A stretch of 64,000 nucleotides of DNA from an uncultured Chroococcidiopsis sp. (GCA_964248365.1 CAXTYC010000001.1:96001-160000), one strand, 5' to 3'; positions 626 to 9,780 are shown, counted from the first letter of the stretch. Notes: generated by a model from the letters alone, not told the origin. Program-made: numbers and translations.

Positions 626-900
626 ATAGAAACAATTATATTATCGTAATTTACGCTGTATTGACGTACACTTTTGCGTTTCTACAAACGTAATATCACA
701 TAATAAATAACTTATTTTAACATCATATCTAAAGAAATATACGTTTTATTTTACCATACTTTTTTTTAAAAAACAAATAATAAAGTTATCTGAGAATTTG
801 TAGTAAAACTACTTAATTACTTGCGGTATAAATCTAATGATAGATGACGGTATAACTTGTTACTTTTTTAATATAAATATAGTTGTTTTTCAGTAATTGG

Positions 901-1623
901 ATGCTTACATCAACGCAGCAGGTCAAAGATATCTTCTTTTGTCCAGAAGAATCTAGTTTTTATGCATATTGCTTAGAGACATTAGTGTTAAATCAGTGTA
1001 TTGACACAGAATCAATTATTGAATTTGGCTCAGGTGATGGTAGTCCGGTTATTCAATCTCTGCTTAGAGCAAATTTTAATGGTATAGTTCATGGTTTTGA
1101 GCTTAATAAGCTAGCTTGTGCAGAGGCAAATTCAAAAATAGAAGAATATGGATTAGGAAAAAAATACCTAATTCACAATCGCTCTTTCTTTGATTCAGGG
1201 CGACCGAAGGCTAAGTATCTAGTATCAAATCCTCCCTATTTACCTGCATTAGATAATAAACTATATCAACCTCTATTGCATGGTGGAAAAGATGGAATTA
1301 CAGTTACTCAAAAACTTTTAGCCTTAGATTATGAAAATGTCTTAGTGATGGTTTCTAGTTATTCTAATCCAGAGGGTTTGATTGATTACGCTATCACAAA
1401 AGGATACCACACTTCTAATTTTCTCGTCTCGCCTTTACAGTTTGGCTATTACAGTTCTGAGCCAAAGGTGATGGATAGAATTGGGGAAATGAAAAAACAT
1501 AACATGGCTTTTTGCACGAAAAATATCTATTTGTTAGCAGGTGTTTTGTTTAGCAAGCGACATCAAGCAGCATCTGATTTATCCAATGAACTATTGCAGA
1601 TAATGACATCACTTCATGAGTGA
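901..1623 (+). CDS. Class I SAM-dependent methyltransferase with NPPY motif
   Basis: Motif I IIEFGSGDG, GFELN after beta-2, and VSNPPYLP. ATG at 901 preferred over TTG at 883. Confidence 0.85.
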   Translation: MLTSTQQVKDIFFCPEESSFYAYCLETLVLNQCIDTESIIEFGSGDGSPVIQSLLRANFNGIVHGFELNKLACAEANSKIEEYGLGKKYLIHNRSFFDSGRPKAKYLVSNPPYLPALDNKLYQPLLHGGKDGITVTQKLLALDYENVLVMVSSYSNPEGLIDYAITKGYHTSNFLVSPLQFGYYSSEPKVMDRIGEMKKHNMAFCTKNIYLLAGVLFSKRHQAASDLSNELLQIMTSLHE

Positions 1624-3839: not shown

Positions 3840-4208
3840 TTAAACTTTTCGCATATTATTGCTATTGGGATCAAAACCACGCGAAAACCTGGTAGTTTGG
3901 TCGTAGCAGGCTCCACTAAAATTAGCTCCATACAGCTTGGCATTGTTTAGTCTAGCTTGCCGAAGATTAGCGTCACTCAGTTTGGCTCCACACAAGTTGG
4001 CTCTAGTCAAGTTGGCTTTGACTAGGTTAGCGCCACATAAGTTGGCTCCCCATAGTTTTGCTCTAGCTAGGTTAGCACCCTCCAAGTTGGCTCCCCACAA
4101 GTTGACTCCCGCTAAGTTAACTCCAATTAGCCTAGCGTTGACTAGGTTAGCTCCCGTAAAGTCTCGTTCCCCCGCAGCATAACGCCGCTTTAGTTCCTCA
4201 GTATCCAT
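3840..4208 (-). CDS. Pentapeptide repeat protein
   Basis: RRYAAGERDF leader followed by tandem A(N/K)LxG repeats. Confidence 0.93.
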   Translation of the reverse strand: MDTEELKRRYAAGERDFTGANLVNARLIGVNLAGVNLWGANLEGANLARAKLWGANLCGANLVKANLTRANLCGAKLSDANLRQARLNNAKLYGANFSGACYDQTTRFSRGFDPNSNNMRKV

Positions 4209-4253: not shown

Positions 4254-6485
4254 TTATAGCCAAAACTGGCGATCGCCTTCCAGCATTCCGCTGAAATTTA
4301 TTCCCTTTAGCCGTAAATAAGCAATGCTGTCAGCGCCATAGAGCGGCATTGGCAGACGAGGTGTTTGTAACGCTCCATGATGAAGTAATGTCAGTTTAAG
4401 TGTTGTTTCTAGAATATCTTCAATTGGTACTTGATATCCTTCCTCACGAACTGTCAAGCGCAAGGGACGAGCCAAACCTACTCTTTCAGAAACCTTGGTT
4501 GTCACTAAAACTGCTTCACGACATGAAAAGCGAAGCGCCAAACCTTTTTCTGGTGCTGATACAATTTTTTGATTCAGGTTATACAGTCGGGGATTATAAG
4601 ACTTGCGACACTCTACCAGAACAAACCTCGCTCCAATTGCTTTTGCCCATGCCTTTAAATTCTCCGCTTCCTTACCACGAAAAACTCCATCTCGATAAAT
4701 TAGAATAGTTTTACCTCTCAGTTGGGATTCTCCTAGCAATGTCTCTAAAAATTTTTGCGGAATTTCTTCGCCTTCAAGTGTCGAATCATCTTCCAACTGA
4801 TAGCGAATGAACTCTCCTTGTTTCCCATAAAGACGTACACTGGCACAAGCATTCCTAGTTCCAGGCAAACTTTGCTTAGCCTTTCTAGAAATATCCAAGC
4901 CAACAAAATAGTCAGCTATCTCTAACGGTTCAGCTAGAACAAAAGGCAAGTTACCCAGCTTTGCCAGCATCCCTGGAATTACTTGATTAAGAATTTGTCT
5001 ATGCTCAACACTACTCAATGTATCGGCATAAATAACTTGGCTAGCAATACCACGCCGCATTAGCTTTGAGTAGATACGATGATATAAACTGCCACCTTCT
5101 TCATTATCAGTATTGCGATCACTCTGAGGTAAAAATGTTAAAACAATATCAGTTGGAATCTCTATTGTTTCATTAATGGTTCTTTCTAACTCTGCTCTAG
5201 CATCAGCTCCTCTTAAGTTACTGATTACCACTGGCTTTTTAGTAACAACCTGACTATTAAACCCATAACTTCTCAAACGTTGTTGAACGCTATCTAAAAA
5301 AGGGTTAACAGTGAAGTCACAAATTTTCAAAGCCGCAATGCGAATCACGCTTGAGCGCTCGCGATAATGATCGTGACGGTAATAAACACCCCCACCATTT
5401 CGCTCAGATAATCCTTTAATAATTTCACCTCTCTTACCTATAAAACCTTTTCCAAAAAGTAGTGGTGTTTCATCAAGCTTGTGCGGTAATTGCCAAAATA
5501 ACGTTTTATAATCACGGCTGTTGATACTACGTTCTAACTGAAATCCATAAGTGGCTAGAGCAGTTTCAGCTTTTTGTCTATAAGAAGCTAAGAGGGCTGT
5601 TCGGTCTTTGTGGGAAATCTTGGTTGCCTTGAGTAACTTACCATAATCCACCTCGAAGCTGTCAGCAGTTTCAGCTGTAACCACAGGACGCAGTAGTACT
5701 AAGGGATAGTCACGCGATTCTCTATTTTTAAACTGTACAGTGACTAGGGGTTGGCTGTCAGGAGCAACTTTCAGTGCTTGTTTACTGATTTCACGAGTTG
5801 CCCTCTTGATTAGTCTTTCTCTGTGTTGTCCTACTGTTCCTACCCAGCGAGTGATAGTACCGTAACTATCTGTATCTATATCTCGAACATTTAAACCGTT
5901 TAAAAGCTCCTCTAAATTCTGCTTATTGGAATGATTTTGATAAAAATCTTCTAAATTACCTCGGTAAAGTACACTACTGTGAATTGTTAAAGCAAGAGCA
6001 GGCTGTAACTGTCCCTGTATTTCAATTGTTTCTGCCCAAAATTCAAGCTCGCGTCTCACATCAACCATGTTGTCAGATTCGACAGGTTTACTGGGAAGGA
6101 TTTTTGTTTTTCTTAAAACCTGGAAAGCCATCTGAGACAAAATATAAGGTGTTAATTGCCACTGACTTACTAATTCAACTGAGTAGTAGCGGTCACCAAA
6201 ATCAGTCAATTTTTCTTGAGTATTTTCGAGAGTATCCTGCCATTCTTTTTGTGTAGGCATGGAAATATTAGCCATCCCCAAGGCATAGAAATATTTATCA
6301 TGCTCCTGCCAAACAACAACCATTCCAGTTAAGTTACGACTGAGATGAAAACTCAAGCGATTGCCGTCTTCTTTACTAATTTCTGGAATTAGTCGAAAGC
6401 AGCACCAATTAGGTTGTAGAATGTTAAGCGGGAAAACTTCACTCAAAAATGTGGAAGCTTGGGAAACTGAAACAGTGCTTGTCAC
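4254..6485 (-). CDS. ago: Long prokaryotic Argonaute (PIWI domain), predicted catalytically active
   Basis: MID-like GIASQVIY...LAKLG. PIWI tetrad GLD / GEE / YRDG / YGAD (DEDD). PRLPMPLY and an aromatic C-terminus QFWL. 743 aa. The GTG start overlaps the upstream TGA (GTGA, 6482-6485). Confidence 0.95.
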
Positions 6486-7306
6486 GTACTAACCTCAGAA
6501 ACAGAAAATTCACAAATACGGCTAAATGGACAGAATTGACAACTGTAACCAGGATTAGGTGGAAAAATTCGTTTAAACTCTGCTGGTTTTTGTTTATAAC
6601 ATCGCAAATCTTTTTGATGCTGCCCAGAGATGCGTACTAATTCGATCTGGATAGCATTCAATTGAGCAGGTGTTGCAGTAATTCGCTCAGACCACTTACC
6701 AGTTTCTAAGTTGTAGAATGAGGCTATAGCTGGTTGCTGTGGGTAAAGATAGCTAGCTGCTAGTAGATAAACAAATCCCTGTCGCCGATCGAAGTCAGTT
6801 TTACCAGTCTTGAAGTCTAAAATATGTAGTGTGCCATCTTGTTCTTCAAAGATACAATCAATAGCAGCATATAAATTAAAGATGTAACTGCCCTGCTGAA
6901 TCAAAATTGGTTCTGGAAATCCTTCATCACCTCGGTTCAACTGTATAATGTTTTTTCCAAGAAGAATTGGATTATCGAAATAGTTTTTTAAGATTTTAAT
7001 TACTCGCTGCTGCACATTAGCTGGCTGTTCATTTAGTTGCAGAATCTGTGCAACTTGCTCCACACCATCCTTGCAGTAAAATACTTGACGGTTTTGATGA
7101 AATTCATAAATCCCTCTTTGAGCTAGATGACCAATTAACTGAGGTGTATTGTCTTGAGCCAATAATTCTGCTACTTGAGGTTCTTGTTTTCGAGCCTTAG
7201 TAAAGCCCCGCTTCATATCACAATGGCAACTTTCTTGCCCTATAGGTGGCCAAAATAATAACCAAAGATTATAACTTGCAAATGGTAGCCACATATTTGG
7301 TATCAA
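6482..7306 (-). CDS. Cas4-like PD-(D/E)XK nuclease with Fe-S cysteines (Argonaute-associated, ACE-like)
   Basis: AAIDC...HILDFKTG and Q...Y (RRQGFVY). N-terminal Cys (CHC) plus C-terminal CxxC-x5-C ([10 protein letters not shown]). Start is probably TTG 7306 or ATG 7294, not 7360. Confidence 0.88.
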
Positions 7307-7307
7307 T

Positions 7308-7889
7308 TTAAGCTTCAGTAATACATAGTTGGCAATCAGTTTGTTGCTGCTTCCAACCATGCTGTATTGCTACTCGCTTCAAAACTGACTTGATAGTTGT
7401 TGGAGAAGCAGAAGACATCATAATACTGGGATAAACTGCTCTACCCCATTCATGATGCTCTAGGGTACGGCAATTATTATGAACCATCGGCAACCCAAGT
7501 AAAGCTTTAACTACAGCACTATCGTCATGAGAAATTTGTCCTGAGCGCGAGAGTAGAGGATAGCCACTGCGGGAGTCGATCAAGTCTGTTAAAAATCCGC
7601 GCTCGCGCAGTTTAAACATCACTTCCAAGCCGAAGCGTTTAAACTTTTCCCGCAGTCGCTCTTTTTCCCTTTCGATATGAGGTGTAGTTTCTACTAGCTC
7701 ATATCGGGATTGCTGCAAGACAACTATAACCCACACAACAGGCAAATTCCAATCTGGTATAACTCGCTCTAAATTTTGGGCAATAAACCGACTGGGCAGA
7801 TGAATTGAAACCTGCACTGCCTGTCCTGTTTCTGTAACCAGGTAGATTGGAAAAGTTTGTGGTGACGTATATAGTTTTGAAGAGTTCAT
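7308..7889 (-). CDS. MMADHC/CblD-like protein (methylmalonic aciduria and homocystinuria type D family)
   Basis: Motifs [21 protein letters not shown] and [19 protein letters not shown] resemble the family as I recall it. Confidence 0.75.
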
Positions 7890-7977
7890 GAAGTTTTAGA
7901 AATTCCTTATTACCTCAAATTATTTCGTACATAATATCCTGCTAATCAAGCCCTAATTAAAGTTGATTTTTTCCTCA

Positions 7978-8019
7978 TGTTGCTTGTTTAATCAACACAA
8001 TCGTTCACTTGTTAGTGAA
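7978..8019. promoter_or_regulatory. Two inverted repeats in the divergent promoter (candidate XRE operators)
   Basis: TGTTGcTTgtttAAtCAACA at 7978-7997 and TTCACTtgttAGTGAA at 8004-8019. Confidence 0.5.
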
Positions 8020-8056
8020 GTTTAGAATGATTTGTGTCCAATAAAAAAAAATATAT

Positions 8057-8419
8057 ATGGAAGCAAGTTTTGGTCAACTTATACGTCAAGCGCGTAGGAA
8101 TAAAGGTTATAGCCAACGCCAACTTGCAGATCTAGTGCATTTAGATTTCACATACTTATCCAAATTAGAAAACAATCGTGCTGAACATCCTCCTAGTGAG
8201 GAAGCAATTCGATCACTGGCACAGCATTTAGATCTGCCAAATGAGGAAGAATTGATTTACCTTGCAGGTCGTATGCCTCAACGCGACCAAGAGCTTCTCA
8301 AGCCGAACTACAAATCTATGCCAGAACTATTTCGTAGGTTGCGAGAAGATCCTGAGTTTGCTCAAGAAATCCTTCGTCGGTCAGCTACACAGCCAGAAAG
8401 TGAGGACGAGCAAAGTTGA
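8057..8419 (+). CDS. XRE-family helix-turn-helix regulator
   Basis: FGQLIRQARRNKGYSQRQLA...TYLSKLENN...LAQHL. Confidence 0.93.
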   Translation: MEASFGQLIRQARRNKGYSQRQLADLVHLDFTYLSKLENNRAEHPPSEEAIRSLAQHLDLPNEEELIYLAGRMPQRDQELLKPNYKSMPELFRRLREDPEFAQEILRRSATQPESEDEQS

Positions 8420-9117
8420 ATATCTTTAAACCTTTTCGCTATCAAAAAAAACAAGAGATTGAGCGTCTAGCTAATGACCTTTTGGCGCAGATGCAAACAA
8501 CGCCTAAGTACACTCCTACATTACCTTTAGATGCTAGTCGTGTGGCTGACTTTCTGGATTTAGCTGTTGTTTGGGACAAAATTCCCGCTGACGATGAAGG
8601 GCTGATAGCAGCTAGAATTCTGCCATTAGAACGTTTAATTGAGATAAATGAAGACATTCCTCGACTAATTAACGACGCTGAAGGATTTGCAGCATCCACA
8701 ATTGCTCACGAAATTGGACACTGGGTACTTCACATCAACCAAGACGAAGTTGATAGATTTTTAAACCGACGAGTGCAAATTACACAGTCAACTGTACAGC
8801 CATTCTTGTGCCGTAGTACCAACAACCAGAAGGTAAGCAACTCAATTGAATGGCAAGCTCAGTATTTCGCTAGTTGCTTGCTGATGCCCCAATACATCCT
8901 AGAAGAAAAACGAGTAGGACGTGATTTGACCAACTGGCGCGATCTTTATGCAATGAAAGACGAGCTTGGTGTAACAATATCTAATCTGACAAATCGGCTA
9001 AAAGATCTTGGCTGGATTCACATTCCTTCAGGTTCTAAGCAAATATATTTAGGTGAGGCTGCACCTATTCGAAATAATGAGTGTTTGGATAGCGATCGCT
9101 TTTCCACCATTTCATGA
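8416..9117 (+). CDS. ImmA/IrrE-family Zn metallopeptidase
   Basis: AHEIGHW (HExxH) and EWQAQYFASCLLMP, with a C-terminal HTH-like segment. 4-bp TTGA overlap with the XRE gene. Confidence 0.92.
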   Translation: MNIFKPFRYQKKQEIERLANDLLAQMQTTPKYTPTLPLDASRVADFLDLAVVWDKIPADDEGLIAARILPLERLIEINEDIPRLINDAEGFAASTIAHEIGHWVLHINQDEVDRFLNRRVQITQSTVQPFLCRSTNNQKVSNSIEWQAQYFASCLLMPQYILEEKRVGRDLTNWRDLYAMKDELGVTISNLTNRLKDLGWIHIPSGSKQIYLGEAAPIRNNECLDSDRFSTIS

Positions 9118-9183: not shown

Positions 9184-9780
9184 ATGGAAACGGCTACAAT
9201 AACGCTCCCTCCTACCCTCAAATTGCATCTCGAATTGACGGATGAGCAATTTTTCCAGCTGTGTCAGCAAAACCAGGATTTGAGATTTGAACGCACAGCT
9301 AAAGGAGAAATACTAATTATGCCACCAACCGGAGGAGAAACTAGCAACTGTAACTTTGAAATCGCCGTGCAGCTTGGAATTTGGAACAAACAGAATAATT
9401 TAGGAGTTTGCTTTGACTCTAATGGTGGCTTTACACTGCCTAATGGTGCTGTTCGCGCACCTGATGTATCTTGGGTAAAGCGAGAGCGTTGGGAGGCTTT
9501 AACTACCCAACAGCAAGAGAAATTTGCTCCCTTATGTCCTGATTTTGTGGTTGAGTTACGCTCTGCTAGTGATTCGCTCAAGGAAACTCAGGAGAAAATG
9601 CAGGAGTATATAGATAATGGCGCACGTCTGGGTTGGTTAATCGACCGGAAAAACCAGCGCGTTGAAATATATCGCCCCCTTCAGGATGTGGAAATTTTGG
9701 AAAATCCTGCAACTGTGTCGGGGGAAGACGTGCTACCTGGGTTTGTCTTGGATCTCAGCCCGATCATGAGGATAGATTAA
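9184..9780 (+). CDS. Uma2-family endonuclease
   Basis: APDVSWV, PDFVVELRS, KMQEYIDNGARLGWLID, GEDVLPGF. Confidence 0.93.
   Translation: METATITLPPTLKLHLELTDEQFFQLCQQNQDLRFERTAKGEILIMPPTGGETSNCNFEIAVQLGIWNKQNNLGVCFDSNGGFTLPNGAVRAPDVSWVKRERWEALTTQQQEKFAPLCPDFVVELRSASDSLKETQEKMQEYIDNGARLGWLIDRKNQRVEIYRPLQDVEILENPATVSGEDVLPGFVLDLSPIMRID

Follow-up and report, generated by a model that had tools for sequence, protein, structure and literature searches.

Which of the genes around a cyanobacterial Argonaute belong to its defence system, and is that system under its own control? The question is raised by five genes at positions 4254-9117 of a stretch of DNA from an uncultured Chroococcidiopsis sp. 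(GCA_964248365.1, CAXTYC010000001.1:96001-160000), which is 64,000 nucleotides (nt) long and is called the window here. An earlier note on this DNA had proposed that a long-A prokaryotic Argonaute (pAgo) and a Cas4-family ACE nuclease are packaged with a third, MMADHC-like protein and with a dedicated, protease-switched repressor, giving an inducible system. Our analysis supports, as the probable account, an APACE1 interference system with a repressor/protease switch dedicated to it and a single, optional additional gene. The features of the locus are as follows, with protein lengths in amino acids (aa).

4254-6485, minus strand: long-A pAgo, 743 aa, GTG start (PADLOC pAgo_II, 1125 bits; Pfam Piwi, 67 bits)
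6482-7294, minus strand: ACE1, a Cas4-like nuclease, 270 aa from ATG 7294 (PADLOC Aga_Cas4-like_Nuc, 468 bits; Pfam PDDEXK_1, 42 bits)
7308-7889, minus strand: MMADHC/CblD-family protein, 193 aa, first gene of the operon (Pfam PF10229, 36.2 bits, cut-off 27)
7890-8056, no strand: divergent control region of 167 bp with operator-like palindromes
8057-8419, plus strand: XRE-family HTH protein, 120 aa, CapH/ImmR/DdrO-like (Pfam HTH_19, HTH_31 and HTH_3; PADLOC capH, 1e-11)
8416-9117, plus strand: M78 zinc metallopeptidase, 233 aa, ImmA/IrrE/CapP-like (Pfam Peptidase_M78, 32 bits; PADLOC capP, 2.7e-16)

All five genes are real and intact, and the positions and strands given for them in the earlier note were borne out. 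Searches with hidden Markov models from Pfam and PADLOC matched every domain that had been proposed (Piwi, PDDEXK_1, MMADHC, HTH_19/HTH_3 and Peptidase_M78); the PADLOC search was without a match for the MMADHC-like protein. The minus-strand genes are tightly coupled, as had been claimed: the MMADHC gene stops at TAA 7308-7310, and the ACE1 stop overlaps the pAgo start in a GTGA at 6482-6485, read directly in the sequence. One detail of that claim did not stand, namely the ACE1 start at TTG 7306. The open frame of ACE1 reaches ATG 7360 (6482-7360) with TTG 7306 as an alternative start, and because this long frame aligns with the homologues and the PADLOC profile only from Met23 onwards, the likelier start is ATG 7294, which lies 13 nt past the MMADHC stop. 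On the plus strand, the TTG start of the peptidase gene overlaps the XRE stop by 4 nt, and this overlap and the 167-bp gap can both be read in the sequence as had been described.

The core of the locus is an APACE1 system

We compared the two downstream genes of the operon with the published structures of the Argonaute-ACE1 pair. Residues 7-743 of the window's pAgo match CtAgo (PDB 9IAD) with an E-value of 3.5e-260, and ACE1 matches CtACE1 (9IAB, 8.6e-108) and MaACE1 (9IAC, 5.5e-100), in line with the earlier reading of the core as a cyanobacterial long-A pAgo with its ACE nuclease. The pAgo was said to keep its DEDD tetrad, and the residues mapped from CtAgo D533/E574/D600/D721 are indeed present in the translation as D531, E573, D599 and D719; across 30 homologues the first three are invariant and D719 is conserved in at least 90%. 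The nuclease was said to hold a DxK motif and four Fe-S-type cysteines. These are found as D146/D160/K162 (from CtACE1 D148/D162) and as Cys25, Cys252, Cys255 and Cys261, one N-terminal and three C-terminal, and all seven residues are invariant in 30 homologues. The two genes are adjacent and in the same orientation, joined by the GTGA overlap. The pAgo, its tetrad intact, belongs to the cyanobacterial clade associated with ACE1, and the nuclease (270 aa) is close in length to the ~278 aa of ACE1-clade proteins. By full-length homology, gene order, tight coupling and catalytic residues, the core two genes are the published APACE1 system.

The APACE1 systems of Chroococcidiopsis thermalis and Microcystis aeruginosa are reported to confer plasmid and phage interference in Escherichia coli (Mol Cell 2025, PMC12094033). 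In these orthologues, ACE1 is described as a 4Fe-4S single-stranded DNA (ssDNA) endonuclease that forms a heterodimer with pAgo, and the pAgo is described as cutting DNA of plasmids and phages with the help of small, 5'-phosphorylated DNA guides (PMC12094033). The window's locus differs from the system as published, which comprises two genes expressed in E. coli, by an additional MMADHC cistron and a divergent repressor/peptidase pair. By identity to the PDB chains, neither the published Ct locus nor the Ma locus was recognised among the loci that we surveyed.

Further members of both families occur in the window genome. A second, shorter pAgo-like gene (G000:C10; L024:655-2418, plus strand; 587 aa; PADLOC PprPIWI, 281 bits) is 27% identical to the window's pAgo, and a solo ACE1 gene (G000:C7; L158:8983-9804, minus strand) is 56% identical to the window's ACE1 and has no pAgo within 9 kb. 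In one sister family, 14 of the 17 genomes sampled also carry solo ACE1 genes.

A divergent XRE/M78 pair accompanies most APACE1 loci

The survey covered ~450 cyanobacterial genomes. Forty relatives of the window genome yielded 15 stretches around pAgo matches, 13 of them with ACE1, pAgo and upstream DNA, and an even draw of 400 genomes of the class yielded 33 further ACE1 stretches, which divide into 16 with an adjacent pAgo, 16 solo ACE1 genes and one fragment. Together they provide 29 APACE1 loci beyond the window (13 from the relatives and 16 from the class sample) that were not found by way of MMADHC. Divergent XRE and ImmA genes lie upstream of ACE1-pAgo in 17 of these 29 loci, and remnants of them in four more. 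Among the relatives, the pair is divergent from ACE1 in 8 of 13 loci (L026, L029-L035), including one ImmA with an internal stop and one ended by a contig edge; four have fragments only (L027, L028, L036, L037), and one distant locus has none (L038). Most of the relatives' loci occupy the window's chromosomal site, between the pentapeptide gene and Uma2/purQS. In the class sample the pair is found in 9 of the 16 loci. The XRE/M78 pair co-occurs with ACE1-pAgo far beyond chance, and the general architecture has four genes, with MMADHC as an optional extra.

The four-gene form is also found on the Nostoc sp. CENA543 plasmid pCENA543b (NZ_CP023282.1, 29626-33952), where the annotation shows an ImmA/IrrE and an HTH gene facing PD-(D/E)XK and Piwi genes; therefore, the APACE1-regulator module is plasmid-borne in at least one strain. 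This 44-kb plasmid is mobilizable (MOBF) and carries a tyrosine recombinase and an IS701 transposase near the module.

Several loci depart from the common layout. One APACE1 subclade (L139:3359-7103, L140-L142) has no separate XRE/ImmA pair and carries another divergent block instead, consisting of DUF6932, an HTH_3 protein of 492 aa that contains HExxH and matches M78 below threshold, DUF4186 and a radical-SAM protein. At another locus (L138:5262-8945), a 5-hydroxymethyldeoxyuridine (5-hmdU) DNA kinase and a MazG_C protein precede ACE1. Decay is seen in five relatives' loci (L027, L028, L036, L037, L040), as a split pAgo or ACE1 or as a fragmentary XRE beside an intact ACE1-pAgo.

The control region carries conserved operator-like palindromes

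We compared the intergenic regions in front of the XRE genes and found a common palindrome, TTGRY-N6-7-RTCAA (for example, TTGATTTTTTCGTCAA), with at least one match in 24 of 25 regions. There are 40 matches in the 4,279 nt of these regions, compared to 445 in 5.59 Mb genome-wide (0.08 per kb), a roughly 100-fold higher density that is descriptive only, as the motif was defined post hoc on the same sequences. The motif persists across loci whose proteins share only 50-60% identity. In 20 of the 24 loci with a match, the operator closest to the XRE gene ends 34-40 nt before the start of that gene, and a TATGAT/TATAAT-like box follows the operator directly. In the window, the corresponding features are these.

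7962-7979, control region: operator-like palindrome
7979-7997, control region: operator-like palindrome
8004-8019, control region: variant palindrome TTCACT..AGTGAA, with G-to-C and C-to-G changes on its two arms, ending 36 nt before the XRE ATG
8023-8028, control region: -10-like TAGAAT ahead of the XRE gene

The palindromes, conserved and at fixed spacing, are putative repressor sites of the CapH/CapP type, and the region has the layout expected of an autoregulated repressor covering the divergent promoter as well. In one genome (G448; L253:4160-4640), a stretch of ~190 nt from the control region, which contains the operators and a CACCATATATA box, is tandemly duplicated.

The repressor and peptidase resemble CapH and CapP

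The capH and capP genes are described as lying upstream of, and opposite to, many defence operons, as a portable regulator (Lau et al. 2022, bioRxiv 10.1101/2022.04.27.489752). The window's pair shares this anatomy: a HTH repressor and a zinc metallopeptidase are encoded upstream on the opposite strand, with palindromes in the shared promoter region. DdrO/IrrE and ImmR/ImmA are further relatives of the design. The peptidase contains HExxH and a downstream Glu, and residues H98-E99-x-x-H102, C132 and E145 are invariant in 19 homologues. For CapP, the corresponding residues are given as H97/E98/H101, the cysteine-switch residue C114 and E128, in a protein of 288 aa with a GAF domain at 182-288 (Calloji et al. 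2026, bioRxiv 10.64898/2026.05.16.725639). The order of HExxH, Cys and Glu is thus the same in both proteins, and C132, within an FLCR stretch, lies between HExxH and E145, in the interval expected of a cysteine-switch loop. Such a switch is not universal in CapP.

A structural model of the peptidase (predicted local distance difference test, pLDDT, of 85) has Thauera CapP 7T5T as its best Foldseek match (E-value 1.2e-5), followed by IrrE 3DTI; a sequence search of the peptidase against the PDB gave no match, and the similarity to CapP is weak. Around the putative switch loop the model is less certain, with block means of 66 and 59 over residues 121-140 and a pLDDT below 50 at 136-140. The model predicts helices up to residue 197, followed by two short strands and a disordered tail. 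The window's ImmA subfamily is single-copy in its genome.

CapH is reported to be cleaved at F82-R83 (bioRxiv 10.64898/2026.05.16.725639). In the alignment of 20 XRE homologues, a C-terminal MPxLFRR stretch is conserved; from this stretch and the CapH precedent, our guess would be a cleavage site near residues 91-94. The labels 'inducible' and 'protease-switched' in the earlier note draw on this anatomy and on the analogy to CapH/CapP; the cargo here is a pAgo system.

A proposed mechanism, and the observations that weigh against it

In the proposed mechanism, the XRE protein would bind two or three TTGRY-N6-7-RTCAA operators in the 167-bp gap, with one over the -35 region of the xre promoter and the others towards the divergent promoter, holding down expression of both xre-immA and the MMADHC-ACE1-pAgo transcript. 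The M78 peptidase would be activated by a stress signal tied to foreign DNA or DNA damage, perhaps via release of the invariant Cys132 as in the CapP cysteine switch, and the peptidase would then cut the XRE protein in its conserved C-terminal part and allow the operon to be expressed. MMADHC, ACE1 and pAgo would be made from one regulated transcript with MMADHC as the first cistron; ACE1 would supply small DNA guides, and pAgo would cut matching DNA. Of these steps, only those of ACE1 and pAgo are reported to have been shown experimentally, in orthologues (PMC12094033).

Several observations weigh against this account. The window's own operators are degenerate, and the regular expression fits only one of three sites. 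The pair is lacking in 7 of the 16 ACE1-pAgo loci of the class sample, and two relatives carry an intact ACE1-pAgo with a decayed XRE gene; the switch is therefore dispensable. Finally, the peptidase, with 233 aa compared to the 288 of CapP, has no GAF domain, nor does anything GAF-like follow residue 197 of the model. The GAF domain of CapP and IrrE is described as forming half of an ssDNA-sensing groove (bioRxiv 10.64898/2026.05.16.725639). As the groove is incomplete here, the protein is less than a full CapP or IrrE, and the ssDNA trigger of CapP should not be presumed for it.

The MMADHC-like gene is an optional first cistron

We next consider the third gene of the operon. Its homology to human MMADHC/CblD is solid: the family profile matches human MMADHC 5CUZ with an E-value of 1.4e-16, and the top eight Foldseek matches of the model (pLDDT 81) are all CblD/MMADHC proteins (E-value 7e-10; template modelling scores of 0.63-0.81). 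The likeness to the human protein (5CUZ, 6X8Z, 9MRS) lies in the fold of the C-terminal domain and in the C-x4-H-x2-WG loop, invariant in the family as C140-x4-H145-x2-W148-G149; unlike the human protein, the window's protein has only ~190 aa and no N-terminal extension. C140 aligns with human C262, next to C261, the cobalt ligand, in agreement with the title of 6X8Z. The family also has an invariant H121-D122-D123, where the human chain differs in the alignment. No MMACHC/CblC partner (PF16690) was matched in the window genome, and 14 control genomes were equally silent, so that this search has no positive control. We know of no test of what the MMADHC family does in bacteria. A terminator-like site inside the gene (7610-7597) was rejected as chance, with three such sites found compared to 4.8 expected.

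A query with the single MMADHC protein recovered no related loci, and an alignment of the family was used instead in two profile scans, from which the best 80 genome loci and the best 80 metagenome loci were kept. The exact layout, ImmA-XRE facing MMADHC-ACE1-pAgo, is found in seven of these 80 genome loci (Argonema, two Floridaenema, two Microcoleus, Phorm 6 and one metagenome-assembled genome), in one of the 80 metagenome loci and in a further genome (G443). This gives 10 five-gene loci including the window, with at least six flanking contexts among the eight compared, and divergent XRE and ImmA genes are present in all nine others. Positions 4254-9077 of the window are collinear with the Argonema locus (71.7% identity over 4,881 nt) and ~66% identical to same-genus relatives. 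In G448, the genome with the duplicated control region, the locus is of the four-gene form, and a 20-aa remnant of MMADHC lies directly ahead of ACE1. The five-gene layout proposed in the earlier note thus recurs at nine further loci; it is a minority form, with MMADHC in none of the 29 loci found by other means.

We examined the descent and selection of the linked gene with two quick trees, from which no rows were dropped, and with ratios of nonsynonymous to synonymous substitution rates (dN/dS). The pAgo tree places the window beside Argonema as its sister (100% support), and all nine five-gene pAgos that were included sit in one 19-row clade (97% support), interleaved with four-gene loci; the five-gene label requires three changes. 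The linked copies cluster in the MMADHC tree with two changes, which is compatible with a single origin. Because five- and four-gene pAgos are interleaved in one clade, and because of the 20-aa remnant, MMADHC appears to have been lost repeatedly, and a single capture followed by repeated loss fits the trees best. The linked MMADHC genes have a dN/dS of 0.11-0.32, compared to 0.10-0.25 for ACE1 and 0.11-0.29 for pAgo, and within each genome pair the dS of MMADHC is similar to those of ACE1 and pAgo; by these estimates, the linked MMADHC gene is under purifying selection. In one family (that of G437), the three of 11 genomes with this pAgo are the only three with MMADHC, once as the 20-aa remnant; in this family MMADHC would therefore be module cargo rather than a resident gene.

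The strongest competing explanation is that MMADHC is a hitch-hiker: an ordinary gene captured once between the promoter and ACE1, often lost and without a role in interference, next to a functional four-gene system. We regard it as a serious contender, though held with somewhat less than even confidence. The evidence on this side also counts against a defence role for MMADHC. The gene is absent from all 29 APACE1 loci mentioned above, and its repeated loss is implied by the interleaved pAgo tree and the remnant. Most members of the family stand elsewhere: 152 of the 160 loci, many of them on short contigs, have no ACE1, pAgo, XRE or ImmA, and in the 73 genome loci among them MMADHC lies mostly in a recurring housekeeping synteny, whose members are, to judge from their sequences, presumably RsmH, an ExbB-like protein, MMADHC, a K+ channel and ArgD. 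The linked gene is the sole copy in 7 of 7 genomes checked, as expected of an ordinary gene that was merely relocated, and the pAgo-linked copies show no group-specific residues, their differences tracking Nostocales versus Oscillatoriales. Among the metagenomic relatives with visible upstream DNA, the closest (78% identity) lacks an upstream XRE gene, and the neighbours of 23 distant relatives (MsrB, MoaC, MTHFR, ABC transporters and others) include no consistent partner and nothing defence-like.

However, the hitch-hiker explanation does not readily account for a gene that remains intact and under purifying selection in the same slot of 10 loci, in at least six contexts and several families, nor for the family where MMADHC is confined to genomes with the pAgo locus. 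If the first cistron of a tightly repressed operon were useless, it should have decayed faster. In our reading, the MMADHC-like protein is not a core subunit; we see in it an accessory of a mobile five-gene module that is optional but selected. That it contributes to or tunes defence, as a small Cys/His-loop adaptor that binds a cofactor or partner, is to us slightly more likely than that it is a captured gene with no role in interference, although each falls short of even odds. A more specific version, in which MMADHC works as the third component of an inducible Argonaute module, is made together with ACE1 and pAgo once the protease lifts repression, and acts on a corrinoid, metal cofactor or partner via its Cys/His loop, seems unlikely to us. 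If so, MMADHC might keep B12 away from replication enzymes and thereby slow the invader or the cell during guide production, or alternatively support or gate the Fe-S nuclease. To our knowledge, cofactor handling has not been linked to DNA-guided immunity in any Argonaute system, and this version, if true, would tie the two together.

The same regulator cassette faces other cargo

The XRE/ImmA subfamily is also present in five relatives' genomes where the window's pAgo found no match. In one of these five, the cassette faces a TnpB gene. In three others (L255:6104-8244, minus strand; L256:2997-5171, minus strand; L259:10089-12163, plus strand), its divergent neighbours are a conserved pair of coiled-coil proteins, highly charged and ~330 aa and 357-379 aa long, with between-locus identities of 70% and 53% and without a Pfam or PADLOC match above threshold. 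The operator TTGATTTTTTCGTCAA was matched by regular expression in two of the three intergenic regions of these loci. Because the same subfamily and operator front other cargo in genomes without the pAgo, the XRE/ImmA pair is, by its distribution, a portable regulator cassette, as CapH/CapP is between cargo operons. Consequently, the packaging with a dedicated repressor pair, as the earlier note had put it, stands insofar as the pair recurs at 17 of 29 ACE1-pAgo loci, but the cassette is not exclusive to pAgo. The coiled-coil pair is a candidate stress or defence module.

Does the pair then control the operon that it faces, or only itself? Xre-COG2856 pairs are counted among toxin-antitoxin-like modules (PMC2701414), and the window's pair could be such an autonomous addiction unit, or an immunity unit of a mobile element, that regulates nothing else. 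The occurrence with other cargo and next to a TnpB gene would fit this alternative. At one locus (L176), dS to the relatives is 1.2-3.8 for XRE/ImmA and 0.26-0.63 for MMADHC, ACE1 and pAgo; this far greater divergence suggests that the regulators were swapped independently of the effector genes, which also fits. However, in every locus the pair keeps its orientation and its place next to the first gene of the operon, and the two or three operators extend across the gap towards the divergent gene, beyond the xre promoter. In the window, there are no integrase or phage genes nearby, and the flanks are the housekeeping purQ/purS and the pentapeptide gene. CapH/CapP also offers a precedent for controlling a neighbouring operon (bioRxiv 10.1101/2022.04.27.489752). 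An autonomous unit is therefore quite improbable, and we retain the repressor/protease switch of the APACE1 operon as the preferred reading.

That the locus is a decaying or silent remnant, as the decayed relatives described above and the partly degenerate operators of the window might suggest, is hardly credible for five intact open reading frames with all catalytic and metal-binding residues present and, wherever an estimate of dS was possible, a dN/dS well under 1 in each of the five.

Two ImmA copies stand in tandem at L176:492-1880.

Relation to published systems

Long-A pAgos have been treated as stand-alone systems. The words MMADHC, XRE and HTH do not occur in the main text or the three supplementary files of the APACE1 study (PMC12094033), nor do repressor and peptidase in its main text, or ImmA and M78 in its supplements. 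The available text of Lau et al. 2022 and of Calloji et al. 2026 has no occurrence of Argonaute or pAgo, and the main text of Ryazansky et al. 2018 is without HTH, XRE, DUF955, M78 and MMADHC. Literature searches returned nothing linking Argonaute with ImmA or XRE in prokaryotes, nothing relevant linking MMADHC with cyanobacteria, and MMADHC together with Argonaute only in eukaryotic work. The earlier note had known of no description of the five-gene architecture, and we likewise found none in these searches. Neither the XRE/M78-APACE1 nor the MMADHC-APACE1 association was found in the literature; the components, APACE1 and a CapH/CapP-like cassette, are already known.

More than half of the surveyed native cyanobacterial APACE1 loci lie behind a putative repressor/protease switch with a recognisable operator. 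If the switch works as proposed, the timing and signal of Argonaute immunity in native hosts become a concrete, testable question, and the switch would explain how a cell tolerates a nuclease pair able to attack its own DNA. For controlled expression in cyanobacteria, the operator and the small regulator pair are potential building blocks. The cassette also points to the coiled-coil gene pair as a candidate module, and the recurrent MMADHC cistron is the first context-based lead to the function of a bacterial family otherwise known only through a human disease gene of B12 trafficking.

Other features of the window

A 246-aa open reading frame at 883-1623 (plus strand) lies in a low-GC stretch (~31-34% GC); it has no Pfam match and a weak PADLOC match to mad2 (1.5e-6). 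The Pfam scan showed the genes that flank the locus to be ordinary ones, purQ and purS among them, and the nearest are listed here.

3840-4208: pentapeptide protein
9184-9780: Uma2

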